Source of the DNA: an uncultured Acidobacteriota bacterium
GTDB taxonomy: Bacteria > Acidobacteriota > Blastocatellia > RBC074
Direction of reading: 5' to 3'
Length of the DNA stretch: 64,000 nt
Assembly (NCBI GenBank): GCA_963796275.1
Contig: CAWCKY010000007.1
Location: forward strand, 896,001 to 960,000
Under the pieces are notes generated by a model, which had not been told where the DNA came from, searched no databases, and worked only from the letters and a program-made list of their open reading frames with translations. This document shows, piece by piece, positions 41,781 through 64,000 of this stretch (position 1 is its first letter; every line of letters begins with the position of its first letter). Made by a program: the position numbers and the translations under genes.

Positions 41781-41803
41781 TTCTCCTAGAGCCTTGTCAA
41801 TTG

Positions 41804-42447: not shown

Positions 42448-42481
42448 TTCTTTTAGTGGAAACTCGTTTCCACTAAAAGAA
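42448..42481. repeat. Perfect 16-bp inverted repeat with 2-nt spacer (34 bp)
   Basis: TTCTTTTAGTGGAAAC-TC-GTTTCCACTAAAAGAA. Confidence 0.92.
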
Positions 42482-42687
42482 ACGACTTTCCGCGGATGGA
42501 AAGTTTCACCTTTTCACTAACTGAAAATTTTTGCTAACTGGCTTATTCACAAGAAGGAAGGCAAAGTGACAGGTGATTAAGCATAAATAAACGCCCATAC
42601 GAAAAGCGAACTATAGTGAAAACGATGTCCAGTGCTCAGCTAAGCAGGCAGCCTTAATGCATGAAAAAAAGTCACAATATCCCCTAT

Positions 42688-44244
42688 TTAACGTTTCGGT
42701 TCCACGAATTCTTTGATAAAGAGTTTGATTGTGGAAACTTCGGAGAGGGGAAACTTGATATTCAGGTCCAATGACGACAGAGGAACAAAGTAATAAGACC
42801 CGATCTCAAATTCCTCAAAATCCTTCTTATCGTTCTTATCGTTCTTATCCCTTTTTTTTCCTCCGCCATTAATGGTCAGGCCGAGATAGTAGTTGGGAAT
42901 ATCGAGGCTTTTTTTCGCGATCCATTGCGGGTTACTGGTGAATACTTCGTCCGCGTTCGGCTTGAAGCTCTCGCAGGAGACTTTGCCTTTCTTTATGATT
43001 AACCAGCAAGGAGAGTTGTTATCGGTGATGCGCCTCTGATCTTTATCAAGCTTCTCTCCGAAATTGACGCGAAACCTCGCTTCGCCACCGAGATCCAGCG
43101 CCTTGGTTGCGAGCTCGCGCGACAATACCGGGTCTTTGCGATAGTAGAGGTAGATCGCAGCCAACATCGAAATCGCTTCCGGCTTATCAGGTACCATCTC
43201 TCGCAACCGCTCGAGGATAGCCGTGGCATCATTGATCTTCTGTTCCGAAGCTTTTCCATCATTGAAGGGTCTGATCCGCTCGAGATGTTGATTAAACGAG
43301 CTGTAAAAGGTCGGTTTGTCCGGCTCTGCGATAGCGGTATATGCGCGCTGCAACTGGCCGCGGTAGCCTTCATCCGTCAGTCCTTTGCGGGTCACGCTCA
43401 AACGATAATCGCTCGATCTATTTGATCTATCGATGACACGCAGTGTGTATTCGCCTGCGGCAGGGAGGATCAATTGTCTGCTGGAAGGATCATCCGATTC
43501 GCCATCGGGCCCCATTTCAAGCGGATTCCCTGTTTGATCGATGACCTGAATTGACAGGTCCGCTGCCGGTTCGGATTGCAGATCGAATTGAATAATGTCG
43601 CCTCCGAGGGCGCCATCGAGCACGTACGAATGAAAGTATCCCTTCGTATTTTCAGCACAATAGGAAGTCGGTGGGCTGAGCTTTCCGGTTAATGAATCGT
43701 CGAACTTGATCCTCGGCAGCGTTGTCGGAGGAGGGTTGCAGATGCGCGCCTCTTCAGTGGAGGCGATCTTTTCGCGCGCGGATGCGACGAAGGAGGCCGA
43801 GCCGTTTTTCGCCAGATTAGTGATTGTGACGGATGCGAGGTTGAACACTAACCCATCGTGAGCGGGTATGATTTTATAATTACGTTTGCAAGGCAGTTTG
43901 TTAAATTTGTATGTGCCAGTTCCATCGGTTACGCCGCTGCTCTGGTCGGCATCGTCCATAGTCAAGGTTACAGCTGAGATCGGTTCGCCGCCTGGTGTGG
44001 TTACCTTGACATTAATCGTACAAGTATTCGCGGCTGTATTGCGCGATCGTGGCGGTTTTTGTCGCTGTCGTTCAGGTTTTGGTGGAACTACGGCAGGTTT
44101 GTTTTCCTGCGGGCTTCCACAGCTACCATCTTTATTCGGAGGTCTGCCTCCAGGGCATTGCGCGTTGGCATTGTCCGGGGAGACGGAGACAATCGCAAAC
44201 AACAGCAACAGGGATAATCTCCTCAGGAGGAATGAAAAAATCAT
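42688..44244 (-). CDS. Secreted multidomain protein (Ig/carboxypeptidase-regulatory-like, PPC-like, helical domains); last gene of the T6SS-like operon
   Basis: ATG overlaps the kinase TGA (ATGA coupling); signal peptide ending ANA-Q; GVTDGTGTYKF; LPAAGEYTLRV. Confidence 0.72.
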   Translation of the reverse strand: MIFSFLLRRLSLLLLFAIVSVSPDNANAQCPGGRPPNKDGSCGSPQENKPAVVPPKPERQRQKPPRSRNTAANTCTINVKVTTPGGEPISAVTLTMDDADQSSGVTDGTGTYKFNKLPCKRNYKIIPAHDGLVFNLASVTITNLAKNGSASFVASAREKIASTEEARICNPPPTTLPRIKFDDSLTGKLSPPTSYCAENTKGYFHSYVLDGALGGDIIQFDLQSEPAADLSIQVIDQTGNPLEMGPDGESDDPSSRQLILPAAGEYTLRVIDRSNRSSDYRLSVTRKGLTDEGYRGQLQRAYTAIAEPDKPTFYSSFNQHLERIRPFNDGKASEQKINDATAILERLREMVPDKPEAISMLAAIYLYYRKDPVLSRELATKALDLGGEARFRVNFGEKLDKDQRRITDNNSPCWLIIKKGKVSCESFKPNADEVFTSNPQWIAKKSLDIPNYYLGLTINGGGKKRDKNDKNDKKDFEEFEIGSYYFVPLSSLDLNIKFPLSEVSTIKLFIKEFVEPKR

Positions 44245-46586
44245 CTTGGTGTTATCTCTTTTGCGCAACGAAAACCTAATACTGCATAGGCGTTTCTGAC
44301 CTGGCTCAACGCGGACGGCTGATATTCACTACGGAATACTGCCGAAGCGTCTCGAGGCTGATCAAAATATGCGCCACCTCGGATGACTTTGCAAGGTTCG
44401 TCGCATTTCCCTGGTTCTGTTTGATAGGAGCTTCCCGGGTATACTTTGAAATCGCTAGACGTCCACTCCATAGCGTTACCTGACATGTCTGAGACACCGA
44501 ATGGGCTGTCTCCGCTCGGAAAACTGCCGACCGTCGAAAATCCGCCAATGGTATTGGCAATGTTCGCTCTTCCTGTTTCGAAAGCATCCCCCCAGGGATA
44601 TAACCTGCCGTCAGTGCCGCGCGCAGCGAATTCCCATTCTTCCTCGGTGGGCAGGCGCTTACCCAAAGACCTACAAAAACGGTCAGCCTTAACCCAGGTT
44701 ACACCAGTTGCGGGTAGTCTGTTTCCATCTTTATTCCGATCATTCCGGTATGCGCCGACAGTCACCTCATATTTGTCGATGAAAAACGGATTCACCGTCA
44801 CTTCGTGAGATGGCCCAGATTGATTATCGCTTGCCGCCGTGCCAAAACCCAATTTAAATGTTCCGCCGCGAATGTAGATCATCCCTTCAGGCGCGACCGG
44901 TTCAGCATCAGCCCGACCAGACTGGTTATTCGGGGCAGGCGGAACTGTCGAGGATGTAGGAGCTGTCGTATCGGCGGCAGGCGAGTTCGTCTTCGTTTCC
45001 GATATTTGATCGGCTTTGTTTCCCAACCAGATAAAAATCGCCACTATCAAAACGGCTACGGCTGCCACTGCCGCGTATACCAACCATCTGCTTTGATTGG
45101 GTATCTGTGTGCTGCATTCCGGGCAGAACTTAAGCAATAAGGATACGCGCGCACTGCAATTACTGCATGTCTGCTTGGTCTCTATGGCACGCCATCGTTG
45201 CGCCAGCTCACCGATTATACGTTTGACGGGTTTCAACAGATCAAATTGAGGGCGGATGTCTAACTGCATCGGAGCATATGCCTGTTTCCATACCTCGACT
45301 TTAAGCGGCGATTCGGCGGGTAGATATTTGGGATGTGTGACCCTGATGGCATATGAACCGGCAGCGATCGATTCTAAATAGAGTCTGCCGTTTTGATCGG
45401 TATTTCCATAGGACTTACCGGAAATCTCTACGCTCGCGTTCGGCACGTTGCAGGAAATAATCAATTCACCTATTTGCTTGCGCTCGAGCTTCGCAACGAC
45501 GGTCAATTCTTCATTGGGTTGGAGTTCTACTGATCTGTTCAGGGAGACGTAACGCGGTGATTCAACCTCGATCAGATACTGGCGCGGCGTCATATTTTTC
45601 TTACTCCACCACCCATCCTCTCCGGTACGTCCTTCGTGCTTGCCGTTCAGATATATCTCAGCTTGCGTAACGATCAGGCCGCTATTGTCGTCGACGCATT
45701 GAAGCACGATCTCGCTCATAGCGATGTTGGCCGCCTGCCTTAAGGCGCGCGCAAAATCGATCGCCGTAGGATAGCGATCGAGCGGTCTTTTTGCGATCGC
45801 TTTCAACACGACATCCTCGATCGCCTGGGGGATATCGGGGTGGATATCGCGCAGCGGCCGGGGCAGTATCGACCGGTGCATATCCATCACCTGCCCCTCG
45901 CTATCGCCCTCGAATGGGACCTGACCGGTCAGCAATTGATAGGTTATGATGCCGAGACTGTATATATCGGCGCCCTGATCGATCGGGCTGTGAGCAATGG
46001 TCTGCTCCGGTGAGATGTAGTATGACGTACCGGCCACGCGAGTGTTGGTTCCTATCGTCGTGCTGAGCACCTTGGCGATCCCGAAATCCAGTACGCGAAT
46101 ACTCTCTTCCCCGTTCTCCTCCCGAACGAGCATGATATTGCCCGGTTTCAGGTCTCGGTGAATGATCCCTTTCCTGTGAGCGTATGCCACGGCATCGGCG
46201 ATCTGATCGAGCATTTCGATCACGCGCTGAAGCGATGGGGCGCCGCTCGCTTTCAGCTCCTCGGCGAGCGTCAGCCCGTCTAGCCATTCCATCACCATAT
46301 ACGCCGAACCGTCCGGAGTATAATCGGCGCTGATGACCTTAATGATCATGGGATGACGTAATGCGACCGTCTTGGTGGCTTCTTCGAAGAAAAACCCGAC
46401 GCCCTCCTCATTGCTGATCGTCAGGTCGGGCCTCAGTATCTTTATGGCAACTCTGGCTTTGGTGATCTCGTGCTGCGCGCGGTAGACGACACCCATACCA
46501 CCGATTCCGATCAATTCCTGAATCTCGTATCGTTCCAGTATTGTGCCTACAAGTTTGTATGGGTCGCGTTTCACCTGTGAGTTCAT
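44241..46586 (-). CDS. Membrane Ser/Thr kinase: kinase-PEGA-zinc ribbon-TM-FGE/SUMF1 domain
   Basis: GIGGMGVVY, AIK, HRDLKPGNI, DFGIAK; CSNC...CPEC; TM WLVYAAVAAVAVLIVAIFIWL; FGE motifs RLPTEEEWEFAARG, DMSGNAMEW, GFRC. Confidence 0.92.
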   Translation of the reverse strand: MNSQVKRDPYKLVGTILERYEIQELIGIGGMGVVYRAQHEITKARVAIKILRPDLTISNEEGVGFFFEEATKTVALRHPMIIKVISADYTPDGSAYMVMEWLDGLTLAEELKASGAPSLQRVIEMLDQIADAVAYAHRKGIIHRDLKPGNIMLVREENGEESIRVLDFGIAKVLSTTIGTNTRVAGTSYYISPEQTIAHSPIDQGADIYSLGIITYQLLTGQVPFEGDSEGQVMDMHRSILPRPLRDIHPDIPQAIEDVVLKAIAKRPLDRYPTAIDFARALRQAANIAMSEIVLQCVDDNSGLIVTQAEIYLNGKHEGRTGEDGWWSKKNMTPRQYLIEVESPRYVSLNRSVELQPNEELTVVAKLERKQIGELIISCNVPNASVEISGKSYGNTDQNGRLYLESIAAGSYAIRVTHPKYLPAESPLKVEVWKQAYAPMQLDIRPQFDLLKPVKRIIGELAQRWRAIETKQTCSNCSARVSLLLKFCPECSTQIPNQSRWLVYAAVAAVAVLIVAIFIWLGNKADQISETKTNSPAADTTAPTSSTVPPAPNNQSGRADAEPVAPEGMIYIRGGTFKLGFGTAASDNQSGPSHEVTVNPFFIDKYEVTVGAYRNDRNKDGNRLPATGVTWVKADRFCRSLGKRLPTEEEWEFAARGTDGRLYPWGDAFETGRANIANTIGGFSTVGSFPSGDSPFGVSDMSGNAMEWTSSDFKVYPGSSYQTEPGKCDEPCKVIRGGAYFDQPRDASAVFRSEYQPSALSQVRNAYAVLGFRCAKEITPR

Positions 46587-46758
46587 AAACTATCGCCCTC
46601 AGGGGATCAAGAATAACTGAATGTCAATCAGTAGATAGGTGAAGAGGGCTGCGCAAAGCATATTATGGAAAAAAAAGGAGATACGCAAGTCCGACGACCG
46701 TCGGTTTGACGGTCCTGTTATATAGTTACTGCGCATGCCTCCATTCCAATAATAAAGA

Positions 46759-48996
46759 TTAATAAGGTATCTTCGCGATCTCGTTTCTCAACTTTCCTGC
46801 CCATTCGGATCCCAGAGCTTGAAGCTTGTTGTACTGACCGGTTGCTTCATTCCTGCGTCTCTGAGCAACATAAATCAGCCCCAGGTGATAGATGGCCAGC
46901 TCGTTCTGCGGATTAACGTCGATCAATCTCCGGTAAAAATCTCTGGCAATATCATGACCACGCGACTGAGCGAGGAATGCTTTCTGAGCGCAAGTATATG
47001 CTTCCAGGTATTTGACATCACGCCTGATCGCCTCTGCACATTGATTGGCGGCGACCTGATATTTAGCCTGGATGAGATAGATATTTCCGAGTTTCACGTA
47101 AACTATGGGATTCTGGAACCCGAGATTAATGGCCCGGTAATACTGCTCGATCGCCTTATGATAATTCTCCGGCATTCCCGAATAGGCGTCACCGAGCCGA
47201 AGGTTGGCAGCCACATCGCCAGGCCTGACCTTCAATATCTGCTGAAAAGAATTGGCAGCGCTCCTGTACTGTCGGCGGGCGAGAAAATAACTGCCGAGCT
47301 GATGGTACGCCTCCAATAACCCTTCCTGCGCGCTGCGGTTATTCCGTTGAAGGGCCAGCGCCTGCCTATAACTGTCGACTGCCTCCTGAAAACGCTTCGC
47401 CTTGAACGCCTGACCGGCCTTTGCCATCAAATCATCGAATGATTCCGGGCCAGCCGGAGTGGCAGATGGATCAGGTGAGGGTTTGGGATCGATATTCGCT
47501 TCGTCCCCAGTATTACCGGTTATGGGAGTTGGCTCGACGACCGGTGTTGGAGTTATATTCGTCGATTGGTTCTCATTAAACCATTTACGATATGCCCCAT
47601 AAACGACCAGCGAGAGGAATAGAACCAAAACAACCGGAGCGATAATTCGGGGAGAGCGCCATTCAATGCCTACCTTGGGCTCCATAGTAAGATCGAGGCT
47701 GTTCCGCTGCCATGCCTCGATTTCAATTGCGGCTTCTACAGGCTGATGTTTCGGGTGAATGAGCTTCACTCTATGTCGACCCGCATCTACCGAATCGGAA
47801 GTGAACCGCCGGTTGTCATCCGTCACTCCGATTCTTCTCCCGTCAAGCTCTACTCTGGCATTTGTTACATTACACTTTATCTCCAAACTTCCGCGAAGCT
47901 CCCGTTCGAGTTTGATTGCCACGACGAGTTCTTCCTGCGGCTCGAGCGTGAATGATTTTTGTGCGCTCCGGTAACGCGGGAATTCGATCTCAATCCGGTA
48001 TTCCCTGGGAGTCAGCTGCTCTAATCTCAATTCGCCGCTGGCATCGGTATTACCGGCGAACTTGCCGTTGAGATAGACGGAAGCGCCAGCCAGACGCGAC
48101 TGATCGGCGGCATCGGCGCACTCGACGATCAGCGTCGCCGGCTGGATGTTGGCCGCGCTGCGGAAAGCGCGCGCGAGTTCGGTCGCTGACTGATAGCGGT
48201 CTGCTGGTTTTTTGGCGAGCGCCTTGAGCACTACATCCTCGATAGCCTGCGGAATCTCGGGCTTGACTTCTCGCAGCGGCCTGGGAGATGCCTCGCAATG
48301 AAGCTTGATCATTTCCGGCATCGAGTCGGCATCGAACGGTTTCTCCCCGGTCAGCATTTGGTAGAGCACGATGCCGAGGCTGTAAATGTCCGCCCGGCGA
48401 TCTATCGCGGCGCCCTTGGTGAGTTGCTCGGGTGAAGTGTAGTAATAGGTACCGGCGACCTGTGTGTTTGTTCCGAGGGTCGCGTCTAGTACTTTGGCGA
48501 TGCCGAAATCCAGAATGCGTATCGTCTCTTCTTCGTGTTCATCGGACACCAGCATGATGTTGCCCGGTTTCAAGTCGCGGTGAATCACGCTCTTACTGTG
48601 GGCGTGTTCGACTGCCCCGCAGATTTGATCGAGCAATTTCGAAGCCCGTTCGATTGAGAGAGACCCGTGATCTTTCAGCTCGTCAAATAATGTGCGCCCG
48701 TCGAGCCATTCCATCACGAGATAAGCCCAGCCCTCTTCCGTTTGATCGACGTCATTGATGCGAATGATCGACGGGTGCCTCAAAGTAGCGGTATTTCTCG
48801 CTTCAGCCAGAAATGAGGTGACCATCTTCGGATCGCCGGCGAGCGTTGGATCGAGGACCTTCACGGCCACAACATACTCGCCGATTTCGTGCCGCGCACG
48901 GTAAACGACACTCATACCGCCCTGCCCGGCGAATTCCTCGATTCTGTACCGGTTCAGCTTCTCTCCGATTAAACCCAATGGGTCGCGTTTAGCCAT
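46759..48996 (-). CDS. Membrane Ser/Thr kinase: kinase-PEGA-TM-TPR
   Basis: GQGGMSVVY, AVK, HRDLKPGNI, DFGIAK; TM IIAPVVLVLFLSLVVYGAY; several C-terminal TPR helix pairs. Confidence 0.92.
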   Translation of the reverse strand: MAKRDPLGLIGEKLNRYRIEEFAGQGGMSVVYRARHEIGEYVVAVKVLDPTLAGDPKMVTSFLAEARNTATLRHPSIIRINDVDQTEEGWAYLVMEWLDGRTLFDELKDHGSLSIERASKLLDQICGAVEHAHSKSVIHRDLKPGNIMLVSDEHEEETIRILDFGIAKVLDATLGTNTQVAGTYYYTSPEQLTKGAAIDRRADIYSLGIVLYQMLTGEKPFDADSMPEMIKLHCEASPRPLREVKPEIPQAIEDVVLKALAKKPADRYQSATELARAFRSAANIQPATLIVECADAADQSRLAGASVYLNGKFAGNTDASGELRLEQLTPREYRIEIEFPRYRSAQKSFTLEPQEELVVAIKLERELRGSLEIKCNVTNARVELDGRRIGVTDDNRRFTSDSVDAGRHRVKLIHPKHQPVEAAIEIEAWQRNSLDLTMEPKVGIEWRSPRIIAPVVLVLFLSLVVYGAYRKWFNENQSTNITPTPVVEPTPITGNTGDEANIDPKPSPDPSATPAGPESFDDLMAKAGQAFKAKRFQEAVDSYRQALALQRNNRSAQEGLLEAYHQLGSYFLARRQYRSAANSFQQILKVRPGDVAANLRLGDAYSGMPENYHKAIEQYYRAINLGFQNPIVYVKLGNIYLIQAKYQVAANQCAEAIRRDVKYLEAYTCAQKAFLAQSRGHDIARDFYRRLIDVNPQNELAIYHLGLIYVAQRRRNEATGQYNKLQALGSEWAGKLRNEIAKIPY

Positions 48997-49024
48997 TTAT
49001 TACTCTAATTACTTATTACTCCGC

Positions 49025-50566
49025 TTACTCCGCTTTTCGTCTTCCGCCGGCAGACCGCTGAAAGATCAAGGTCGCCGCGCCCGCCAGCGATATCTCGTTC
49101 TTGTTTCGCAGTAATTGCCCATTCTCCTTCGGCACCGGCTGTCCATTCACGAATGTCCCATTCACGCTCTCGTCGATTATGTAGAAATCGCGATTCTCCT
49201 GCCAGATCAGGCAATGCCTGCGCGAGATAAGCCGTTTGCGATCGTTGATGACGATGTCTGCTTCACCGTCAACGGCACCGATGAGAGTTTCCGGCCCATC
49301 GAGCACAAAGGTCTCACCCTTGCACGGTCCATCGACGCATCTCAACTCCCAATTTCCGGGGCGAAAGAAAAAATAGAGGCCGAAGAACAACCCGGTAATT
49401 GCCAGGAGGGCGAACCCGATCCAAAAATAAGTGACCGAGGAACACCGTGATGCCCAAGAATCGATCTCTTTATCAAGTCTGGAAGCCAGCAGGTTAGATG
49501 AGTCTATCTGACGCGCCTGAACGATAGTCTCCTTGGCTATCTCGGACTCTTCACAATTTCGCGCAAAGAAAATATCTTTCGCGATGCCGATCTTCAGCAG
49601 AGCATCGAACCGGGAGACCAATCCTTGAAACTCCGAGAATCTGACTGAACCGTCTCTCGCTATCTTTAAAGCATCTGCCAGCCGGTCATCCCTTTCTGCG
49701 GAGTTAATCTGATCATAAAGGGATTTCTTATCGGCATCTTCCGCGATCTTGTCAAGATCTTCCTCGTGCTTCTTGATCTCTTCCTGCAGTCTCCCCCGCG
49801 CGCCGAGGTCCGTCGGATCCAAAAAATCTATCATCAAATTGTCGAGCGCGACCTGTCTCGTCGGATTCCCTTTTGCCTGATCATGTAGTTCCAGCAATCG
49901 CCGCATCCCCTCTTTCTTATCGTCATTAAGTGATGCTGACGATTCGCTCGGGCCAGATCGGCGTAAACTGAGTTCCTGTAGACCGCGCTCGGTCAAGGAC
50001 AACTCGACATGTACCGCCTGCTTCGGTCCTTCCCGGATAATCCGTTCGATCTTCACCAACCCTTTATCCTTCGCCCTGCGTACGGCCGATTCGATCGCGG
50101 CCTGATTGGGACCGGCCAAATCGAAGACGATCAGATCCTGGCTCGAATGTGGCGTCTTATCAGGATCCGCGATTATGTATCCCCGTTTGCGCAGTTCGGC
50201 CAGGACGGGCCGCCAGGTCTCAGGCTTCTCCACTCGCATGTTGGGTGGAAGTGATATCCCCTCGACCTGCGCGTAATGACGAATTACGCCTAGTTGATCG
50301 CTGGCCGCACGAAAACCGGATGTCAGACGCGTGCCGTTCGGCAAACAACATTCCACCAGCAGAGTGAAAGCTACAAAAACAGAAACGTTATCCTTCTCGA
50401 TGACATCCACGCCTCCCTGCTTCTGCTCCTTGGCCGTCTGACCGGAGACACGAGCGACGATCACAAAAGTAAAAAGACCAGGTGTGAAAACCAAAAAGAC
50501 AAAGAGAGGCATGAGAGGCAAATTTTTTTTGTCCCTTTTGCCCCTCTCTATCTTTCTCGTCTCCAT
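49025..50566 (-). CDS. Membrane protein with peptidase-M15-like N-domain and C-terminal FHA domain
   Basis: N-terminal hydrophobic segment; LTSGFR-x-x-x-x-Q, TPH...FD, VHVE; TM FWIGFALLAITGLFFGLYFFF; FHA motifs ISRRHC and SVNGTFVNG. Confidence 0.78.
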   Translation of the reverse strand: METRKIERGKRDKKNLPLMPLFVFLVFTPGLFTFVIVARVSGQTAKEQKQGGVDVIEKDNVSVFVAFTLLVECCLPNGTRLTSGFRAASDQLGVIRHYAQVEGISLPPNMRVEKPETWRPVLAELRKRGYIIADPDKTPHSSQDLIVFDLAGPNQAAIESAVRRAKDKGLVKIERIIREGPKQAVHVELSLTERGLQELSLRRSGPSESSASLNDDKKEGMRRLLELHDQAKGNPTRQVALDNLMIDFLDPTDLGARGRLQEEIKKHEEDLDKIAEDADKKSLYDQINSAERDDRLADALKIARDGSVRFSEFQGLVSRFDALLKIGIAKDIFFARNCEESEIAKETIVQARQIDSSNLLASRLDKEIDSWASRCSSVTYFWIGFALLAITGLFFGLYFFFRPGNWELRCVDGPCKGETFVLDGPETLIGAVDGEADIVINDRKRLISRRHCLIWQENRDFYIIDESVNGTFVNGQPVPKENGQLLRNKNEISLAGAATLIFQRSAGGRRKAE

Positions 50567-50587
50567 CTTATCTCCATTTGATTACCG

Positions 50588-50599
50588 TTATCGGACCCA
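50588..50599 (-). other. XerC-arm-like half site TGGGTCCGATAA
   Basis: In the 36-bp gap between the Clp and FHA genes; 11/12 identical to 23416-23427. Confidence 0.25.
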
Positions 50600-50602
50600 A
50601 GT

Positions 50603-53164: not shown

Positions 53165-53310
53165 AGTAAAGATAATCAAAAGGCCAAAGGAAAAAGGCAA
53201 AAATCAAAATGTCGGATTTTCTGTCTTTATTATCTGACTTCCATGCTTACGTATCCGTCTTTTGATTATTGTCTCTCTCCTTCTGCCCTCTGCCTTTGAT
53301 TTCAGGGTTA

Positions 53311-55004: not shown

Positions 55005-55027
55005 TCATTTTCATTTCATACATAAAT

Positions 55028-55939: not shown

Positions 55940-56019
55940 GATATCCCAACAACCACGTTTTCCTGGATCGAAACCGAAAATCTACAACTCACTGAATCAT
56001 GTTCACCTGTTTCTATAAG

Positions 56020-56484
56020 CTATCCGCATAAAACAGCCACTGCATAACCTCTCTTGGCTGCCTCTCTGATCGCTGACTCAAAGGCGTAATAAACTGTTTC
56101 TACATACTTCTCTCTTTTTTTCAAAAATCGCTCGACCTCATTCTCTGAGATCGCTTCGTAGCTATCATTCAGATCTTTAACAACCGCCGGCTTGAAATAT
56201 CCAAAATCCGGATAATCGTCATTATCGGGATCCAGTAGATTATGGGGAGAATTCGCAAAAGAAAATGTTGGCATCAAATCCGTCCCCCCCGTCACTAGTT
56301 GATCGATCGATTCCAAAGCCTCCGCAAGCGGTAAAAAATCCAACGAGATCATTTCCCATTGACTTCCCACCTCTTTTACCTTGGCCAAGAGTTTCTCGTA
56401 CTTCTCCACTTCAGAAAGCCCCGGAAGAGCCATCGGTAACTTACCCTCGTCGACTACATAAAGGAGGTATGTGTCATTCATCAA
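56020..56484 (-). CDS. Acidic hypothetical protein, candidate second immunity protein (DUF1877-like)
   Basis: 154 aa, acidic, overlaps the preceding immunity gene; FGYFKPAVVKDL...EAAKRGYAVAVL; AT-richer than the flanks. Confidence 0.55.
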   Translation of the reverse strand: MMNDTYLLYVVDEGKLPMALPGLSEVEKYEKLLAKVKEVGSQWEMISLDFLPLAEALESIDQLVTGGTDLMPTFSFANSPHNLLDPDNDDYPDFGYFKPAVVKDLNDSYEAISENEVERFLKKREKYVETVYYAFESAIREAAKRGYAVAVLCG

Positions 56485-57256
56485 TCGACCCCAATAAATG
56501 CAAAGGGAGGTAATCAGATTTCACGGTTACATCCATCTGCTTTTCACGCCCCAGCTGGGCCAGCATCAATCCCGGCAAACAGATCAACCCTTCGTACATC
56601 AAGCGATACTCTCCGCGTAATGCTTCCCACTTATGAGCTTCAACCAAATCCGTTATTGCCCTATGAAAAGCCGGCTGGTCGCTATCCATGATCGCCTTGA
56701 CCCCTCTGATCTTGGGCAGCAGGAATTTCATCTCTTCTTTCGATGCTCGATCCGATGAACAGTACACTTCCAGTCTCTGTATCTCGTCCTCAGCCCAAGC
56801 GCCCTCAGCTACGTATCGTTTCTCAACCTCTAAAAAATCAGCCCTTATTAGATACTCACCATGCTCGGGGAAGTTATATTGCCACCGTTGTATCCCGGCC
56901 AGCTCTCTTCTCAGCTCTCTTTTCCCGAAACAGACAGCCAGGTCTATGGTCTTTTCAAAATCACCGACAAACCGAGTTTCCATCTCTCTTGGCTCGGCTC
57001 GTTTCGAGAGGAACATGACATAAAAATCTGCCGCGCTTCTCATGTGGGAAACGATCTCTTCTTTCGGCGCCTGCTGCTGGTAAAGCAGCATACCAGTTTC
57101 AAAATTTAATTCCGCCAGCTTTTCGAGATGTTTCAGGCTCTCGCTCGCATCACCAGAGGCTTCCAGCTTGGCTACCCGGCGAGGAATAATTTCGAGATTA
57201 TCTTTAATCTCCTCTTGGGCATTTTCGTCCGATATTTTGTTAAGTTTTAACCCCAT
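56474..57256 (-). CDS. Immunity protein, Imm49-like
   Basis: Directly downstream of the RHS toxin; C-terminal FHRAITDLVEAH...GLICLPGLMLAQL...VKSDYLPLHLL fits the Imm49 pattern. Confidence 0.72.
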   Translation of the reverse strand: MGLKLNKISDENAQEEIKDNLEIIPRRVAKLEASGDASESLKHLEKLAELNFETGMLLYQQQAPKEEIVSHMRSAADFYVMFLSKRAEPREMETRFVGDFEKTIDLAVCFGKRELRRELAGIQRWQYNFPEHGEYLIRADFLEVEKRYVAEGAWAEDEIQRLEVYCSSDRASKEEMKFLLPKIRGVKAIMDSDQPAFHRAITDLVEAHKWEALRGEYRLMYEGLICLPGLMLAQLGREKQMDVTVKSDYLPLHLLGSIDE

Positions 57257-57292
57257 AATTGATCTTTCCCCATGCAGTTACTAGCATGATCA

Positions 57293-60200
57293 TCAGTTGT
57301 AGATGCCTCCGTCCGGAACTGGCAACTCGCGCGTCGAGCCATCCGGTTGAGATTGAACAACCATGCCCCTAACCTTCGGTGGCGGGCCATTTTTCATGGC
57401 TTTCTGGATATCTTTCGCCACTGGATTTCCAGATTTAGCCCACTCATCCGCGGAATTCTTCACCCATTTTTGACTCATTTGCGGCCCTTTCTTCGCCTTT
57501 GTGCTGAGTTCAGCGCCTGGTCCCTTTGCTTCGACAACCATATATTCAGTGACTTCGCCCGCTGCGTTTCGTTTAACGTAGACCTGATCATAGCCGGTCC
57601 CCGGAGCAAATCCACTCACCATCTCATACCCCGGATGGTTCTGCCTCATGTGTCTCGCCGTCCCGGTTTCACCTATGGCCTCTGTAACTTTCGCTTTGTA
57701 ACCGCCCTGAGATTGTTTACTTGCCCCTCGCTGCCTCGCCCTATCCGTTTTCCTCTTGTATTTTCTCTGGTGAGCTCCGACATCCTGCATATGCTGTGCG
57801 AAGACGGGTCTGGGATTCCTGGCGATTCTTCTTTGACGATTTAATTTCTTCCATTGCGCTCTGGTCATACTCCGAGGGACCGACACGTCTGTCCTCGATG
57901 GTCGACCGTCACCGTCACCACGACTCCTGCTTCGAGCCGGACCGCCCGGATGAAGCCCTAGAATGTCGACTCCAGTCAGCGGATTGGCCAGATAGGCATA
58001 GAGATTATAGCCGCCCGCTATTCCCAAGGGATCGCACTGCAAATAGCGCCCGAGTTCCGGGTCATAATACCGGAATCGATTATAGTGCAGCCCAACCTCG
58101 GCATCATAATAATGCCCTGGAAATCGGAGGTTGATATCATCCGAATTGCCAGATTCAACTCGGATCGCGCCATATGAAAAGACTTCACCCTCCCAGATGG
58201 TTCTTCCAGATTTATCTTCTAATCGCTCTGGCACACCTAGCTGATTGGTGAAAAGATATTTTATTACTCCGCTTTCCGGTTCTGCATCGAGGCTTGCATA
58301 CTCGACAAACAGAAAAGGTACCAACGCTTCCACATCCGCATACACATAGATGCGAACGTATCCATCATCTCTGATCTCACCCGATAATCGATCATGATCC
58401 CAGTAATACTCGGTCTTCTGTCCCTTCCAGCGTTTCCAGATTCTCCGACCGAGCACGTCATATTCGGCTCTCCACTCGCGGCCATTCATTGAGATCCCGA
58501 TGATTTGATCGAAAGAGTCGTATTCATAGCGCATTGTCCTCTTTTCACTCTCACGCAGCGTGACATTGTCGCGTTTATCATATTGGAACTTCTCGCCGTT
58601 GGCTTGCTTGAGCTTATTTCCGGATCCGACCCGTACGCCATCCAGTCCTGGCTGCAAGACCAGATTCCCTGCTTCATCGTTAGCATATAGTTCGGTCCTC
58701 CCGTCCCCGCGCTCTGCGATCTTCAACCTGTGCGCCGCATCGTAATGATATTTCACCGTCCCGCGCCTGCTGTCTTCGACCTGCAATAGATCGCCAGCCC
58801 CACTGTAGCGGTAGTTTCTGACATGTAGCTTCCCCTCAGCCATAGCCGCTACTTTACGCAGACATCGTCCTCCGGAATCATACTGACTCAGTTCCCTGGT
58901 TCCGTTGCCCAGTTCCTTAAGGATCAACCCATTATTACTGAAGTGAAATGTGTGTGCGCCACCTGTCGGATCGTTTATGACGAGGTTGCCGTTATACCCT
59001 CTTCTGTACGCGATGACAAACTTTCCAAATATCGTGGTGGAGAACAAACTATCCCCAATGAATTCGTGTTCAACCCCTAATCCATTGCGGATGTCCTTGA
59101 TCAGCCGTCCCTCCTCGTCGTAATCGAATGACATCCGGGCACGACGTGTCTGTGCTCTGATAATCTGGCCGCGTTTGTTGTACTCAAATTGATAAACTTC
59201 ACCATCAGCAAACCGCTGAATACGATCGAGCCGCCCAAATCCTGGTTCACGATCTAGCAGTCTTCGCCCCCTGCCATCCAGTTTTTCGATCAGATTGTCA
59301 GCTTCGTCATAGCGGTAAATGTCATAGGCGACTCCATCGCGCCGCACCTCGACCAGCCTGTCCTTCTTGTCGTAGACGAAGTCGTGAACGACTCCACCCG
59401 CATCGATAAACTGGGTTATCTCTTCAGTTGGTGAATATTTAAATGTGCAAGTGCTGCCGACAGGATCGGTTTCGCCATGGAGAAGATTCCAAGACGTGTA
59501 CGCTCTGCGGCGTATTCCGCCATCGCCATCGACGTACAAAACCTCATTCCCTTCTTCATCGTACTCCCAATGCTCAACCGAGCCGTCTTCATTTCGCCGC
59601 TCAATCAACCGCCCCAGCAGATCATAATTCTCTTGTGGAATCGATCGCTGGTACCTATTTGATCCGGCATTCCATGATTGCGCGAGCTCAGAAGCGACTT
59701 CCGGAAAACCTTCCAGTAGAGGATCATTCGTAGAAACAAGTTTGATAAACTCCCGGTCCAGCAGATCGCCGAACTCCCATTCGAGCGGTGTTTCGGGTAC
59801 CCTGTGTTCCAGTGGATCTGCTGGATGCGGCTCCAAATCCAGCGGCGGCGCCCAATATCCCCACGGGTCTCGCCTGCCCGTGTGCGCTCCCTGCTCATCA
59901 TATAGAAGATCAGTCGGATTGCCCGCCGGATCGAGCTCACGGCTGACTAATCCAGTATCCGGGTCAATGAGACGGTGGTGCGTTCCGCCATAAGGATCGG
60001 TGATCTTGGCTATCGTTCCCAGTTCGTTGTACTCGTATTCCCAACTGCCTCCGTCGGAATACTTCACCACCGTCGCATTGTCTTCCGGATAATATTTCAG
60101 CCACCCTTCGTACATTCCGTCTTCCCCGCTCGTATAGACGCAACGCCCCTGTTCATCGTACTGATACCGATAACTGTATCCGCGCCGGTCGGTCTTGCGC

Positions 60201-61801
60201 GTCATACGGCGCGCGGGGTCATATTCGTACCGCGCAACTCGATCGAGCGCGTCACGAAATTCAATCAGGCAGCCGTCGTCGTCATAACGGTATCTCGCCA
60301 CATAGACAACTTCATGCCCCGGCCGCTTCAGCAACACCTCACTCACCAATCCCGCCGAAGAATAGTTCAACTGAATCGTTCTCTCATCATCAATCCGAAT
60401 TCCGATGAGCCGTCCCTGTTCGTCATAAGCGAACGTGAAATTCCTATCTTCATCCCGTAGCCTCACCAGCCGCGCAGGCTCCGTCATCTCGCGAAATTCA
60501 AACTCTATCGCCGGTCGATTGTGCGAATTCAGCTCGAATCGCCGCGCCGCGAGGCGTTTCAACGCATAACCGTGCTGTGTGACACGCTCGCTCGGGTATT
60601 CGGTGATAAAAGACGGGAATGGGAAAGAGTTTCCTTCCGGATCCGTGTATGTGTATTGCGAAGTGGATTGGTCGTATGTCAGCTCCAGTTGATATTCATG
60701 TCTGAATCCCCATCCCAGCGGACCTGCCCCTGCCAGCTCCTGCAGTTGCGAGTTGTACCAGCGCCGCCAGACGAACCGAGGGGCAGGTAGCATGAAGTCG
60801 GTAAAATCGTCGACATTGGCCCCGGTGACTACGTCGATCGGTTCGAACAACTTGCCGCAACCCTGATTGAGTCCCATTCTTTGGGAGAGCTTCATAGCTC
60901 GACGCTTGAGCAGCTTCCCCAACCCTCTCAGAATCACGTCCCATCCCGGCATCGGCAGTCCGCCGATCAATACGTTCTGGCTCCCGGTGATGAATTTCCC
61001 CCAACAGTTTAACGGAGTGAATCCCGGGTCTTTTCCCATCCCGATTGACAGGGCCATCGCCGCGATGTCCGCCGCCATCTGAAGCCCCGCCATCGCCGCC
61101 TCGATTCCCGCCGCCTCCGATTTCGCCGCTGCCTCTTTAGCATCCGACTCCGATTCCGCGCTGTCCTCCATCTCCTGGTAGCCCACATGATCGGCCAGCG
61201 CCGCCGCCCCGCCCAGCGCTCCCATCGCCACCGGGAGAGCCATCATTGCCTTATCCAACTTCGACAGTCCCTTAAATCCCTTTTTCGCCGCCTTGACTCC
61301 TTTCAATCCCGGAATCCCCGGCAGGCAGTGCTTGGTGAAGTCGATCAAGAATCGGGCAGGCCTCGCTCCACCGATAAATACGTTTGAGGAACCTGTGAAG
61401 ACTTCGAACAACGGATAGTAGCCCCCACACCAAACTCCGAATCCCACGTCTCCGGTCCTCACGGCCGGCAAGCCGTTGATCAGAACGTTGACCGCCCCGG
61501 CGCAGATAACCGGCCCGATGCTCGGCAATGGGAAGCCAAAGGACGGCGGGTGCGGATGGCTGTGCGGCCATCCCAACACCAGGTCTATAAACAACCGCGC
61601 GGCGGGAAAACTCGGCAGAGCGTTGGAGAGCCAATTAGTCGCTTTCGCGACTCCCAGATTGGCCATATCGACAGGCTTCGTGGCGACCGACATGACTTCG
61701 CCGACAAAATTCTGTACGTCGCGCGCCGGGTTGGGCGGCGGCGGCAGCGCCTCGTTCGATGGATTGGCTGGGAGTTGGGTAGCGCGTTTAAGTTTTTCCA
61801 T
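57293..61801 (-). CDS. PAAR-RHS polymorphic toxin with C-terminal PD-(D/E)xK (PoNe-like) nuclease
   Basis: PAAR-like NVLINGLPAVRTGD and TGSSNVFIGG; EPIDVVTG (DUF6531-like); YD repeats; core end YNRFRYYDPELGRYLQCDPLG...VDILGL; toxin motifs GYDQVY...VVEAKG...QMSQKW. Confidence 0.92.
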   Translation of the reverse strand: MEKLKRATQLPANPSNEALPPPPNPARDVQNFVGEVMSVATKPVDMANLGVAKATNWLSNALPSFPAARLFIDLVLGWPHSHPHPPSFGFPLPSIGPVICAGAVNVLINGLPAVRTGDVGFGVWCGGYYPLFEVFTGSSNVFIGGARPARFLIDFTKHCLPGIPGLKGVKAAKKGFKGLSKLDKAMMALPVAMGALGGAAALADHVGYQEMEDSAESESDAKEAAAKSEAAGIEAAMAGLQMAADIAAMALSIGMGKDPGFTPLNCWGKFITGSQNVLIGGLPMPGWDVILRGLGKLLKRRAMKLSQRMGLNQGCGKLFEPIDVVTGANVDDFTDFMLPAPRFVWRRWYNSQLQELAGAGPLGWGFRHEYQLELTYDQSTSQYTYTDPEGNSFPFPSFITEYPSERVTQHGYALKRLAARRFELNSHNRPAIEFEFREMTEPARLVRLRDEDRNFTFAYDEQGRLIGIRIDDERTIQLNYSSAGLVSEVLLKRPGHEVVYVARYRYDDDGCLIEFRDALDRVARYEYDPARRMTRKTDRRGYSYRYQYDEQGRCVYTSGEDGMYEGWLKYYPEDNATVVKYSDGGSWEYEYNELGTIAKITDPYGGTHHRLIDPDTGLVSRELDPAGNPTDLLYDEQGAHTGRRDPWGYWAPPLDLEPHPADPLEHRVPETPLEWEFGDLLDREFIKLVSTNDPLLEGFPEVASELAQSWNAGSNRYQRSIPQENYDLLGRLIERRNEDGSVEHWEYDEEGNEVLYVDGDGGIRRRAYTSWNLLHGETDPVGSTCTFKYSPTEEITQFIDAGGVVHDFVYDKKDRLVEVRRDGVAYDIYRYDEADNLIEKLDGRGRRLLDREPGFGRLDRIQRFADGEVYQFEYNKRGQIIRAQTRRARMSFDYDEEGRLIKDIRNGLGVEHEFIGDSLFSTTIFGKFVIAYRRGYNGNLVINDPTGGAHTFHFSNNGLILKELGNGTRELSQYDSGGRCLRKVAAMAEGKLHVRNYRYSGAGDLLQVEDSRRGTVKYHYDAAHRLKIAERGDGRTELYANDEAGNLVLQPGLDGVRVGSGNKLKQANGEKFQYDKRDNVTLRESEKRTMRYEYDSFDQIIGISMNGREWRAEYDVLGRRIWKRWKGQKTEYYWDHDRLSGEIRDDGYVRIYVYADVEALVPFLFVEYASLDAEPESGVIKYLFTNQLGVPERLEDKSGRTIWEGEVFSYGAIRVESGNSDDINLRFPGHYYDAEVGLHYNRFRYYDPELGRYLQCDPLGIAGGYNLYAYLANPLTGVDILGLHPGGPARSRSRGDGDGRPSRTDVSVPRSMTRAQWKKLNRQRRIARNPRPVFAQHMQDVGAHQRKYKRKTDRARQRGASKQSQGGYKAKVTEAIGETGTARHMRQNHPGYEMVSGFAPGTGYDQVYVKRNAAGEVTEYMVVEAKGPGAELSTKAKKGPQMSQKWVKNSADEWAKSGNPVAKDIQKAMKNGPPPKVRGMVVQSQPDGSTRELPVPDGGIYN

Positions 61802-61818
61802 GGAGGTTCATCAAATGC

Positions 61819-63042
61819 CTAAGATTTCAATTGAGAAAGCGCAGCCTTGCAGACGGAGAGGCGCCGGGAATCCCCCAGCTCTCGATATAGATCTCGCAGG
61901 CGCTCCCAATTCGCCCGCTGCCCTTCTTCGAATTTCAACTTGCGGCTCAACTCAACCGCCTGTTCCCAGTTCTCGGCGGCTTCAGCCGATTTTCCCATCC
62001 GGTGATTAGCCGTCCCCATCTGTTCAAGAGCCTGTATCTGTTGTACCGGCAGATTCGAAGCCCTCGCGAGTTGCTCCATCGCTTCGTAATAGACAAGGGC
62101 GTCGGTAAATCTGTTCTGCATCAACAGGGCATTACCCAGATTGAACCCCTGGTATAGAACCAAAGGCTCCGATTTCAATCCGACCGAAACGTTGATGGCA
62201 CGCTCGTACCAGTTTTGAGCCTCTTTATATTTTTTCTGCGTGTAATGCAGATCGCCGATGTTATTCAACACGATGGCCTCTTGATGTCGCTGCCCGGCGC
62301 GCCCGAAATAACCGGCCAATTCCAGATTGCGAGACAGCGCCATGTCGTAGCGTTGATGTGCGACGTCAAAACCGGTCAGCATCATCTGAAGCTGCGCATG
62401 TTCTTCCACAGGAAGACGCGGATCGTTCGCTTTCTCTTCAAGCTTCTTTTCGAATGATTCGGGGTCGAGTCCCGGGCGGTATATTCTTACGTTCGGCTGA
62501 GCGCCAATCCCTCGCTCAAGATTCGGAGAAATCGCGCCGTCACGGACGATCAACTTAGTCATCCGCAATGACCCTGTCTTCAACTCGTCGTAGACATTAC
62601 TGACCAACTCAGCATATTTAGTCGTGGCGTCGATCTCCAGCGGAAAGAAGGTCCAGATCACGCGGCGTTGGTCAGTAACCAGGTTTTCGACATATCGCAT
62701 GAGCCCGACCAGCCGAGTGGTAGGCTTCTGCGATTCATCCGTCAGCTCAGATGGTGGAGCCGGAAGAGCAGACTCGCCACGCTTAGCTAGTTCCTGATTG
62801 ACGCCGGCAAGTTGGAGGCTGATGATCGGAGGGATTTCCCGGACGTATTGGCCCGGATCGGTGAACGGATGACCGAAGGTCAGGAAAAGGTCGAGCGACC
62901 CCGGGTCGTCGTCCAGAGACTCGAGTGCCTTGAATAGAAGCGCTGAATGATCCGGCTCACATGGGACGATCAAAAGGTTTTCCGTTCGGCTGTCAATGAA
63001 CCGCTGAAACTCCGATTGAATGTCCTGCATGATGCTTCTCAT
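61819..63042 (-). CDS. TPR-containing protein, candidate effector chaperone/adaptor
   Basis: C-terminal TPRs (AIVLNNIGDLHY, FNLGNALL, ALEQMGTAN); sits between the VgrG-tip and PAAR-RHS genes. Confidence 0.7.
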   Translation of the reverse strand: MRSIMQDIQSEFQRFIDSRTENLLIVPCEPDHSALLFKALESLDDDPGSLDLFLTFGHPFTDPGQYVREIPPIISLQLAGVNQELAKRGESALPAPPSELTDESQKPTTRLVGLMRYVENLVTDQRRVIWTFFPLEIDATTKYAELVSNVYDELKTGSLRMTKLIVRDGAISPNLERGIGAQPNVRIYRPGLDPESFEKKLEEKANDPRLPVEEHAQLQMMLTGFDVAHQRYDMALSRNLELAGYFGRAGQRHQEAIVLNNIGDLHYTQKKYKEAQNWYERAINVSVGLKSEPLVLYQGFNLGNALLMQNRFTDALVYYEAMEQLARASNLPVQQIQALEQMGTANHRMGKSAEAAENWEQAVELSRKLKFEEGQRANWERLRDLYRELGDSRRLSVCKAALSQLKS

Positions 63043-63079
63043 CGCGCCTCCGCATAATGTGCCGCTTAAAACGCCTCGT

Positions 63080-63643
63080 TCAATTGATCTTGACGATTAC
63101 GCCCTGAATAGTCACGCCCGTGCTGTCAATCTTGATCGACCCGCCCGGCCCCTGAATGACCAGCTCTACCCCCGCGTTGATAACGATCGTCTCCTTGCCG
63201 AATTCGCTGATGTGTCTAGCGTTAATGTTCCGGGCATTGGTCACGCTAACCATCTGATCACGGGTAATCGTCACATTCTGATCATCGATGACAGTCACTA
63301 TTTGATTTTTTCCGACCGTCAAAGTATCGCTCAGCGTTACCGCCGTATTACGATTTTGATCAAACTGGAGCACATCCTCAGGGTCGCCGTCGCGAACGCG
63401 GAACATGAATTTCTTTTGAATCTCCTCCAGGCGCTGTCCTTCCGATACCAGGGCCGTCTGATCACCGACCTTGATCAAAACCTGCTCCTGGCCTGGTTTC
63501 GGTCCGGCCAGAAAACTTTCGCTCGTAATTGATCCCCAGCTCGCCGCGCTGCCGTTTGTGGGAATATGGTTGTCGGAGCCAGCATTGGGCACCGCAGTGC
63601 CAGTGCTCGTTTGAGTGTCTGCGCTATATACTTCACCCGGCAT
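63080..63643 (-). CDS. Stand-alone VgrG/gp5 C-terminal spike-like protein
   Basis: GGAGGA RBS; KPGQEQVLIK; 8-residue beta repeats (TLTVGKNQ IVTVIDDQ NVTITRDQ MVSVTNAR); VgrG-type end GPGGSIKIDSTGVTIQGVIVKIN; no gp27 hub domain. Confidence 0.72.
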   Translation of the reverse strand: MPGEVYSADTQTSTGTAVPNAGSDNHIPTNGSAASWGSITSESFLAGPKPGQEQVLIKVGDQTALVSEGQRLEEIQKKFMFRVRDGDPEDVLQFDQNRNTAVTLSDTLTVGKNQIVTVIDDQNVTITRDQMVSVTNARNINARHISEFGKETIVINAGVELVIQGPGGSIKIDSTGVTIQGVIVKIN

Positions 63644-63686
63644 ATGCTAATCCTCCAATATAGAACCGTTGGCAGTTTGGTAAGGA

Positions 63687-64000
63687 CTAAGTTATCGTTC
63701 GATATATAAAAAAAGCTCCCGTCAGAAACAATGCAACCGCAACTGCAATAAGCGCTAATCCTGCATAATACAATTTGCCGCTCTTGATAGGCATCCACAG
63801 CCGCGGGAATTGAATTCCATAGAAAATAGGAATTTGATCGCCGAGCTGCGTCTGATCGAACTCTTTCTGCGTAACGGACAAAACACCCTGGAAGCTATTG
63901 CCATCCTCCGGATAGGTAAATTTGAGTTCGCATCCATTTTGAGTAAGCTGTTTTTCTACAACCGTGCCATTGCCTTTGATATAGGAGACCTGATCGGAAT
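63687..64000 (-). CDS. Partial membrane protein, DUF3592-like (5' end outside the window)
   Basis: Open frame to the window edge: IKGNGTVVEK...LKFTY...LGDQIPIFY, followed by a C-terminal TM helix. Confidence 0.55.
   Translation of the reverse strand, partial: SDQVSYIKGNGTVVEKQLTQNGCELKFTYPEDGNSFQGVLSVTQKEFDQTQLGDQIPIFYGIQFPRLWMPIKSGKLYYAGLALIAVAVALFLTGAFFIYRTIT

Follow-up and report, generated by a model that had tools for sequence, protein, structure and literature searches.

The stretch analysed here, in the following called the window, comprises 64,000 nucleotides of an uncultured Acidobacteriota bacterium of the Blastocatellia (contig CAWCKY010000007.1, C7:896001-960000). Annotation of its open reading frames (ORFs) with Pfam and NCBIfam showed that a single row of minus-strand ORFs occupies positions 42688-64000. 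This row is the distal part of a minus-strand type VI secretion system (T6SS) cluster of about 60 kb, which continues past 64000 and in full spans roughly C7:938,688-999,023. The initial annotation of the window had described twelve co-oriented genes; the common orientation is correct, but the number is not, as 13 genes in 14 ORFs were counted. From the upstream end these are as follows (TM, transmembrane; values are E-values unless given in bits):

63687..64000, minus strand: 3' part of a two-TM protein of 139 aa (ORF; the full gene reaches to L001:2106)
63080..63643, minus strand: gp5-C-like beta-helix protein, 187 aa (Gp5_trimer_C 3.8e-4, below cut-off)
61819..63042, minus strand: TPR protein, 407 aa (TPR_2 1.5e-13)
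57293..61801, minus strand: PAAR-DUF6531-RHS protein, 1502 aa (RHS_repeat 2.2e-37, DUF6531 1.8e-14, PAAR 2.5e-6)
56474..57256, minus strand: Imm49-family candidate immunity protein, 260 aa (PF15575 4.5e-10)
56020..56484, minus strand: DUF7691-like protein, 154 aa (PF24740 4e-5, below cut-off)
55028..55939, minus strand: TssG baseplate subunit, 303 aa (PF06996 8.7e-6, just above cut-off; TIGR03347 1.2e-6)
53311..55004, minus strand: TssK baseplate subunit in two ORFs (TIGR03353 9.6e-13, below cut-off)
50603..53200, minus strand: ClpB-family AAA+ ATPase, 865 aa (TIGR03346 924 bits, below cut-off)
49025..50566, minus strand: TM-periplasmic-TM-FHA protein, 513 aa (FHA 7.9e-15; Yop-YscD_cpl 4.4e-9)
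46759..48996, minus strand: receptor Ser/Thr kinase with Pkinase, two PEGA, a TM helix and periplasmic TPR (Pkinase 9.7e-52, PEGA 7.9e-15, TPR matches)
44241..46586, minus strand: receptor Ser/Thr kinase with Pkinase, two PEGA, a TM helix and a periplasmic FGE-sulfatase-like domain (Pkinase 2.1e-47, FGE-sulfatase 1.8e-43)
42688..44268, minus strand: secreted protein of about 518-526 aa (N-terminal hydrophobic signal; CarboxypepD_reg 4.6e-7, below cut-off)

Upstream of the window the cluster continues with genes for two paralogous proteins of 254 and 262 aa, a second gp5-C-like protein with a hydrophobic tail and VgrG, followed further upstream by a 119-aa barnase/RNase-type protein, a 117-aa gp25-sized protein, a 141-aa protein, TssC, TssB and a 580-aa TssF/baseplate-J-like protein. 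The initial annotation had guessed that sheath and Hcp genes lie beyond 64000, and on extension TssB, TssC and an Hcp-fold gene were found there. TssB (160 aa) matches PF05591 with 5.2e-7 and TssC (452 aa) matches PF17541 with 3.6e-20, both above cut-off, and together they form the two-protein contractile sheath expected of a T6SS. No NCBIfam match was obtained for the cluster TssC. The 141-aa protein gave no HMM match. Its AF2 model (pLDDT 85.3) is closest to the Hcp structures of Bacteroides (8gra at 4.3e-5, 7yw0) and Flavobacterium (6bdc), including B. fragilis Hcp5 and F. johnsoniae Hcp1, with TM-scores of 0.57-0.66. The model therefore supports an Hcp-fold tube protein; the family profile has a weak match to PDB sequences (0.11). 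A 117-aa gp25-sized gene stands where TssE is expected, and an Atlas lead points to gp25-like clusters (0.92). The spike is represented by VgrG (543 aa; Phage_GPD 2.7e-11, Phage_base_V 1.7e-26) and by the PAAR motif on the RHS protein. The VgrG tip that had been placed at 63080..63643 is only weakly backed by its Gp5_trimer_C match, and this 187-aa protein is probably a separately encoded spike-tip extension. It has an orthologue in locus L026 (52% identity), and its 229-aa paralogue at L001:3725-4414 matches PHROG 430, a baseplate hub/tail lysozyme family, with 9e-5.

The baseplate subunits TssF, TssG and TssK are all present, with TssF as the weaker member. The 580-aa TssF-like protein matches TIGR02243 with 6.4e-8, and Baseplate_J was found in 4 of 23 family members. 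The TssG-like call of the initial annotation was borne out, since PF06996 is matched by all 23 family members scanned. In genome-wide searches with the TssG and TssK family HMMs, the top non-self match (1.3e-5 for TssG) lay in both cases in a separate canonical subtype i (T6SSi) locus at C3:1488401-1504828, where TssM, TssB, TssC, TssE, TssG, TssK and ClpV were identified by HMM or BLAST. For TssK, an AF2 model of the intact orthologue P0122 (562 aa, pLDDT 79) shows a beta shoulder, a helical neck and a beta head. In foldseek, the first 15 ranks are taken exclusively by TssK chains (E 3e-12 to 6e-6) and IglD appears first at rank 16, so that the TssK fold, a failure of which would have spoken against the initial annotation, is upheld. 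At the sequence level the TssK family profile matches the PDB weakly (0.019). The genes tssG and tssK directly adjoin, with no gene between them.

Some features of these two proteins deserve mention. The TssG N-terminus is PASTA-like in 14 of 92 sequences scanned (E 1e-4 to 4e-4, below cut-off), at residues 28-94 in two relatives (L076:15029-16003 and L061:15017-16066), which is odd for a cytoplasmic baseplate protein. The C-terminal ~60 residues of TssK form a Pro-rich, low-confidence tail (pLDDT <50). Its end is conserved and basic, with a consensus ending in RRRRLE and an invariant R560, and this basic tail is possibly a docking peptide. Complex prediction for TssK residues 360-562 with the multi-pass FHA protein described below gave 0.00 in both runs, which speaks neither for nor against binding.

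The Clp ATPase seen in the initial annotation scores higher as ClpB (TIGR03346, 924 bits) than as ClpV1 (TIGR03345, 686 bits), both below cut-off. It has a full coiled-coil middle domain and two Walker A motifs. It is the third such paralogue of the genome, with 43-44% identity to two other ClpB-like genes and 38% to the ClpV of the T6SSi, and is encoded in the cluster in 6 of 6 relatives examined. This ClpB-family ATPase is a candidate for the sheath-recycling TssH. The Francisella T6SSii uses ClpB, and in both systems a ClpB-type and not a ClpV-type unfoldase would recycle the sheath. In contrast to Francisella, a dedicated third ClpB paralogue lies in the cluster here, and both sheath and baseplate differ from the Francisella type.

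Extracellular and cytoplasmic contractile injection systems (eCIS/CIS) have a single-protein sheath, a tape measure and tail fibres and lack TssK and Clp, whereas a split sheath, TssG, TssK and a Clp unfoldase mark a T6SS rather than an eCIS. That the cluster encodes such an eCIS or CIS and no envelope-anchored secretion could be argued from its phage-like side: a single-sequence PDB search with TssC ranks a pyocin sheath first (0.0013), PHROG assigns TssC to a tail sheath family (1.7e-10), the TssF-like family profile has the Streptomyces CIS baseplate-J chain 9gtp as top PDB match (4e-4), and no known membrane complex was found. However, TssB and TssC form a split sheath, and the cluster also codes for TssG, TssK and a Clp unfoldase. 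Pfam scans of the cluster revealed no tape-measure, tail-fibre or terminator family, and the combination of a PAAR-RHS effector with an immunity gene is in keeping with contact-dependent competition. An eCIS/CIS is therefore regarded as very improbable.

From the window alone the locus might have seemed a one-off oddity. However, a TssC search found the same core cluster in 8 of 401 sampled Acidobacteriota genomes, belonging to 5 of 228 genera. Six neighbourhoods share the order vWA-TssB-TssC-Hcp (one or two copies)-gp25-sized-TssF-TssG-TssK (571-646 aa)-ClpB-like ATPase, and VgrG and kinases lie nearby. In a collection of 185,579 species with one genome per species, 174 stretches with a TssC relative were confirmed. 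The best 80 of these 174 stem mostly from Blastocatellia, Acidobacteriaceae (Granulicella, Terriglobus, Edaphobacter), Bryobacteraceae and Ca. Sulfotelmatobacter, and a few metagenome bins among them bear other phylum names. The lineage is widespread in soil Acidobacteriota, and cultured carriers include Granulicella mallensis X5P3, Edaphobacter modestus DSM 18101 and a Terriglobus sp. By ORF clustering the vWA protein was detected in 70 of the 80 loci, TssC in 69, the multi-pass FHA protein and Hcp in 64 each, TssF in 60, TssK and a ThiF-type E1 in 57 each, TssG in 55 and the ATPase in 54, many loci ending before that point. These counts are underestimates, because many loci are cut off by a contig end or by the 10 kb flank and the greedy ORF filter lost some true genes; TssC is present in all 80 by construction.

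In agreement with the initial annotation no TssJ, TssL or TssM is encoded at the locus, and none was found in the cluster or upstream of it on extension. Searches for TssM, DotU/TssL, TssJ and T6SSi-type TssC were also negative in all five other carriers (99-100% complete), with a positive E. coli control. TIGR03355 (VipB-type TssC) matched only the C3 locus in this genome and none of the five carriers.

A 1-nt frameshift near 53862 divides tssK into ORFs of 418 aa (53748-55004) and 146 aa (53311-53751), whereas TssK of the relatives is one protein of 557-646 aa. Homologues with 92-93% identity are intact (562 and 581 aa; P0122, 93%) and align to both frames. At 53862/53865, six contigs from four soil or plant metagenome runs have one G more than the assembly. 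As these contigs are of related strains, the closest run sharing 0.17 of sampled words with this genome, they do not distinguish a tssK pseudogene from an assembly error. If the frameshift does not stem from the assembly, it may have rendered this copy inactive.

The gene order is also altered. In the closest loci L024 and L030 (TssC identity 92%) the order is 4-TM Cys-rich, multi-pass FHA, vWA, TssF, TssB, TssC, while in this genome the first three genes are located at C7:995462-999023, ~26 kb upstream of tssF. An unrelated insertion of ~25 kb (C7:969990-995201) separates the vWA gene from tssF, which adjoin in L024 and L030. It contains a sigma/anti-sigma pair and codes for a TPR-CHAT protein of 1179 aa, a protein with a caspase domain and PQQ-type propeller proteins. 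In addition, effector cassettes are located between the gp25-sized gene and tssG. The cluster in this genome is thus a rearranged local copy of a conserved lineage.

Frameshift and insertion could indicate a decaying copy, the more so as close homologues of TssK are intact, and the T6SSi with TssM could indicate a dependent copy that borrows TssJLM from contig C3. We consider this explanation, in either form, unlikely. Every other gene of the cluster is an intact ORF, and a single-nucleotide indel may be a mistake of the long-contig assembly. Borrowing is opposed by the five other carriers, none of which has TssM, TssL or TssJ; therefore the lineage as such does not borrow TssJLM.

Four membrane proteins travel with the system: the multi-pass FHA protein, the vWA protein, the TM-FHA protein encoded after the ATPase and the 4-TM protein with a Cys-rich tail. 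The multi-pass FHA protein of Terriglobia-type loci has 316 aa, 4-6 TM helices and a C-terminal FHA domain, and the form found here has 423 aa with an extra N-terminal soluble part. In the vWA protein, an N-terminal signal/lipobox-like sequence is followed by the vWA domain (8.6e-17), which is periplasmic, and by a single C-terminal TM helix with a cytoplasmic tail. The two genes overlap by 1-4 nt and are sited directly upstream of tssB or tssF. To follow their distribution, profiles of both proteins were searched against the 401 phylum genomes. Full-length strong matches (E<=1.8e-104 for multi-pass FHA, E<=3.5e-137 for vWA) occurred in exactly the 8 TssC-positive genomes; the other matches, 9 for the FHA and 1 for the vWA profile, were weak and confined to the domain. 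The initial annotation had proposed another envelope anchor. Co-distribution supplies the candidates for it, and from their topology, strict co-occurrence and translational coupling and the lack of any other candidate we infer that the FHA/vWA membrane proteins are the likely replacement.

Two side observations concern these genes. In the Blastocatellia multi-pass FHA protein (L104:6895-8166, minus strand) the FHA domain is without its last C-terminal strands compared to the Terriglobia orthologues, and a similar '...DDILVGRTTLRF' segment is found in the added N-terminal soluble part, ahead of the TM bundle. In this form the FHA domain gives the impression of being split or permuted, with the membrane domain in between. 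In many Terriglobia-type loci the ThiF-type E1 (57/80), an E2-like protein (UQ_con 0.0036; 34/80) and the 4-TM RING-like protein (41/80) adjoin the FHA/vWA pair (L009:5012-7583; families 6, 13 and 11 in L024-L103), a possible sign of a ubiquitin-like conjugation module associated with this T6SS. The 4-TM protein with the Cys-rich tail matches Prok-RING_2 only with E=0.034.

The 513-aa TM-FHA protein has TM helices at 19-37 and 383-401, which enclose a periplasmic domain of ~345 aa, and a cytoplasmic FHA domain. In L105-L110 the gene after the ATPase encodes in each case an orthologue with 72-78% identity. In five of the six relatives a TM-FHA protein of 710-742 aa with another, 3-keto-disaccharide-hydrolase-like periplasmic domain takes this place. 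The protein had been described as M15-TM-FHA. The FHA domain (7.9e-15) C-terminal to two TM helices was recovered, but M15 was not: the periplasmic part has no Pfam match at E<=0.5, PHROG gave none, and PDB phmmer (E<=10) returned one irrelevant chain. Three short motifs are invariant among six orthologues, and we take them to be reminiscent of LAS/M15 motifs, with M15 itself unconfirmed. The protein is a candidate anchor or phospho-reader. The type III secretion protein SctD/YscD is an inner-membrane ring protein that has a cytoplasmic FHA-type and a periplasmic domain. The TM-FHA protein shares this combination, as well as the Yop-YscD_cpl match. However, its order is reversed, with the periplasmic domain between the two TM helices and the FHA domain at the C-terminus, and homology is confined to the FHA domain.

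Both receptor kinases of the initial annotation were recovered. Kinase 1 (46759..48996) has its TM helix at 451-469 and follows the TM-FHA gene in L105-L109. Kinase 2 (44241..46586), with the TM helix at 501-519, follows kinase 1 in L107, L108 and L109. The secreted protein that had been seen as coupled to it is indeed so, as its ATG overlaps the kinase 2 stop as ATGA, and the ATG at 44244 is the likely start. Its orthologue in L107 (65% identity) has the same position. Blastocatellia-type metagenome contigs keep the succession ATPase, TM-FHA, kinase 1, kinase 2, secreted protein: L107 contains all five genes, L108 and L109 contain both kinases, and L105 and L106 stop inside kinase 1. Because this gene order is conserved in L105-L109, an own two-kinase module holds for the Blastocatellia-type subclade. 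Other carriers have at least one kinase nearby, and in two of them (G289, G199) a PP2C phosphatase lies next to TM-FHA.

For the phylogeny of the sheath, an exhaustive phmmer search with TssC against 1.84 billion representatives gave just 151 clusters at E<=1e-3. Of 150 clusters listed, the 76 of 400-640 aa were kept, which gave 77 sequences together with the query, and PF17541 is matched by 70 of these. A tree of 83 rows (the 77 sequences, five relatives and the T6SSi TssC as outgroup) was calculated with IQ-TREE. The cluster TssC falls into a 26-row clade (SH-aLRT 98), apart from a 41-row clade (99) that holds all four named anchors, Hoylesella oralis (P0342), Phaeodactylibacter (P0310), Spirosoma (P0323) and KSB1 (P0352). 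It is thus not nested in the clade of named Bacteroidota T6SSiii sheaths, as would be the case if TssBC belonged to that described subtype. Since the root rests on a single long branch, we claim separation of the two clades and not sisterhood. The sequence P0352, with a TssC of the PF17541 clade, is named at NCBI as candidate division KSB1, and T6SSiii-type sheaths may therefore not be strictly confined to Bacteroidota.

An August 2026 review still lists four T6SS clades, namely subtypes i (Pseudomonadota), ii (Francisella), iii (Bacteroidota) and iv (Amoebophilus) (PMC13584744). According to Abby 2016, T6SSiii was identified in Bacteroidetes only (PMC4793230), and it is called Bacteroidetes-specific in a 2026 plasmid survey that uses profiles for subtypes i-iii (PMC13098142). 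No description of an acidobacterial T6SS subtype was found in the full-text literature searched, whose coverage excludes most subscription journals and supplementary files. In T6SSiii the membrane complex is TssNQOPR, with a contact between TssN and TssK, and tssN lies systematically between tssG and tssK in Bacteroidota, as described by Bongiovanni 2024 (PMC10781749).

The similarity to T6SSiii is considerable. It includes a PF17541-type TssC of ~450 aa, a small Hcp with its nearest solved structures in the Bacteroidota genera Bacteroides and Flavobacterium, an equal set of tail and baseplate genes with a Clp ATPase, and the lack of both TssA and TssJLM, as reported for T6SSiii (PMC13584744 and PMC10781749). 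The cluster could thus be an ordinary T6SSiii member that reached Acidobacteriota, with TssN-R present but too diverged for the Pfam models. This appears quite unlikely. The cluster TssC reaches only 72.7 bits on PF17541 and belongs to the separate supported clade, and the position of the Bacteroidota tssN, between tssG and tssK, holds no gene here. Moreover, the conserved membrane proteins are lineage-specific and carry FHA and vWA domains, whereas the term FHA has 0 occurrences in the main text of the T6SSiii membrane-complex paper (PMC10781749). Further differences to T6SSiii are that TssK here has ~560-600 aa, a larger C-terminal beta domain and the disordered tail with its conserved basic motif, that the ATPase scores nearer to ClpB than to ClpV1, and that Ser/Thr kinases accompany the membrane proteins.

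Taken together, the cluster probably represents an unclassified Acidobacteriota T6SS lineage that is related to but separate from T6SSiii, is without TssJLM and TssNQOPR, and for which we propose an FHA/vWA anchor that is probably phospho-regulated. The suggestion of an uncharacterised acidobacterial T6SS variant in the initial annotation is thereby supported, since neither canonical tssJLM genes upstream with a nested TssBC nor a failure of the TssG/TssK folds was found.

Several points weigh against this interpretation. This genome has a TssJLM-type T6SSi on contig C3, and the tssK copy of the cluster is frameshifted. The negative result for the T6SSiii membrane complex, with no match to the Pfam models of TssN, TssO and TssR in five genomes including this one, was obtained for these three proteins and without a T6SSiii positive control, and the TssR model had no match anywhere. 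The named anchors of the TssC tree are 4 of the 20 representatives looked up, and the tree comes from a quick search under LG+G4, with a single long outgroup branch as its root. The co-distribution counts of the FHA and vWA proteins are not independent, because the 8 carriers fall into 5 genera; these proteins could be purely regulatory, and no outer-membrane component was identified. Finally, the gp25/TssE call is based on gene position, size and the Atlas lead only. None of 23 members of the gp25-sized family matches Pfam, PHROG gave no match, and hhalign against 16 T6SSi TssE sequences gave P=0.056, the same as for an unrelated control family.

For the mode of action, the following scheme is proposed. 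The two kinases would sense envelope or neighbour cues via their periplasmic TPR and FGE-sulfatase-like domains and phosphorylate threonines. These phospho-marks would be read by the FHA domains of inner-membrane proteins, namely the multi-pass FHA protein, coupled to the vWA protein, and the TM-FHA protein. The FHA/vWA membrane proteins may then form or license an envelope platform, on which the TssK-TssFG baseplate would dock together with the VgrG/tip/PAAR-RHS spike. TssBC would polymerise around Hcp, contract and expel the spike, the ClpB-like ATPase would recycle the sheath, and Imm49 would protect kin.

In the H1-T6SS of P. aeruginosa threonine phosphorylation proceeds via PpkA, PppA and Fha1, and PpkA contains a vWA domain. 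The system described here resembles it in having kinases and FHA proteins in the cluster, PP2C in two carriers and an associated vWA domain. In contrast to the H1-T6SS, FHA is fused to integral membrane proteins, vWA belongs to a separate protein with a C-terminal TM helix, the two kinases have TPR and FGE-sulfatase-like sensors, and there is no TssJLM on which they could act. Going beyond the lineage assignment, we tentatively put forward, at just short of an even judgement, that this is a fifth T6SS subtype native to Acidobacteriota, that its FHA/vWA anchor is a third, independently recruited one, and that phosphorylation acts on a TssK-docking anchor and not on a soluble Fha adaptor.

The remaining genes of the window mainly form an effector cassette. 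The TPR protein of the initial annotation was recovered; the order TPR followed by PAAR/RHS also occurs in L028 (52% identity), and the protein is a candidate adaptor or chaperone for the PAAR-RHS effector. For the effector itself, the PAAR-RHS architecture annotated before holds. The end of its RHS core resembles T6SS Rhs core structures, e.g., 8qjc at 1.1e-20. Past the RHS core the C-terminal toxin domain has no Pfam or PDB match, and the only Atlas lead is to Mrr-type restriction endonucleases (score 0.90 at rank 20). Two candidate immunity proteins had been proposed, of which the Imm49-family protein holds, while the evidence for the 154-aa DUF7691-like protein is weak, leaving it a candidate second immunity or accessory gene. 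Further upstream, between the gp25-sized gene and vgrG, the 119-aa protein (L001:6174-6533, minus strand) matches the barnase/RNase family PF00545 with 3.6e-6, above cut-off. It has no signal peptide, no barstar-like neighbour was seen, and L027 contains a copy with 68% identity. The protein may be an RNase effector carried by Hcp or VgrG. The 139-aa protein at the window edge has TM helices at 8-26 and 116-134 by hydropathy and no Pfam family at E<=0.01. The former DUF3592-like label is not confirmed, since the full protein has no Pfam match to DUF3592.

A promoter/terminator scan of 41500-57400 gave a number of sites not above that of shuffled sequence. Downstream of the cluster, a plus-strand ORF of 793 aa (38119-40500) has two LptF/LptG permease matches and is apparently a fused LptF-LptG. 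Between this ORF and the cluster, at 40661-41437 on the minus strand, a 258-aa 3-keto-disaccharide-hydrolase-like protein is encoded, of the same family that forms the periplasmic part of TM-FHA in other carriers.

Large surveys with profiles for subtypes i-iii only (PMC13098142 and PMC4793230) would be expected to miss this system. A lineage with a phage-like tail and baseplate and neither of the known membrane complexes bears directly on the manner and frequency with which T6SS anchors were recruited, a question that the T6SSiii membrane-complex paper raises as open (PMC10781749). As cultured soil carriers exist, this question is testable at the bench. The lineage would also extend the ecology of a phylum that ranks among the most abundant in soil by a contact-dependent weapon.

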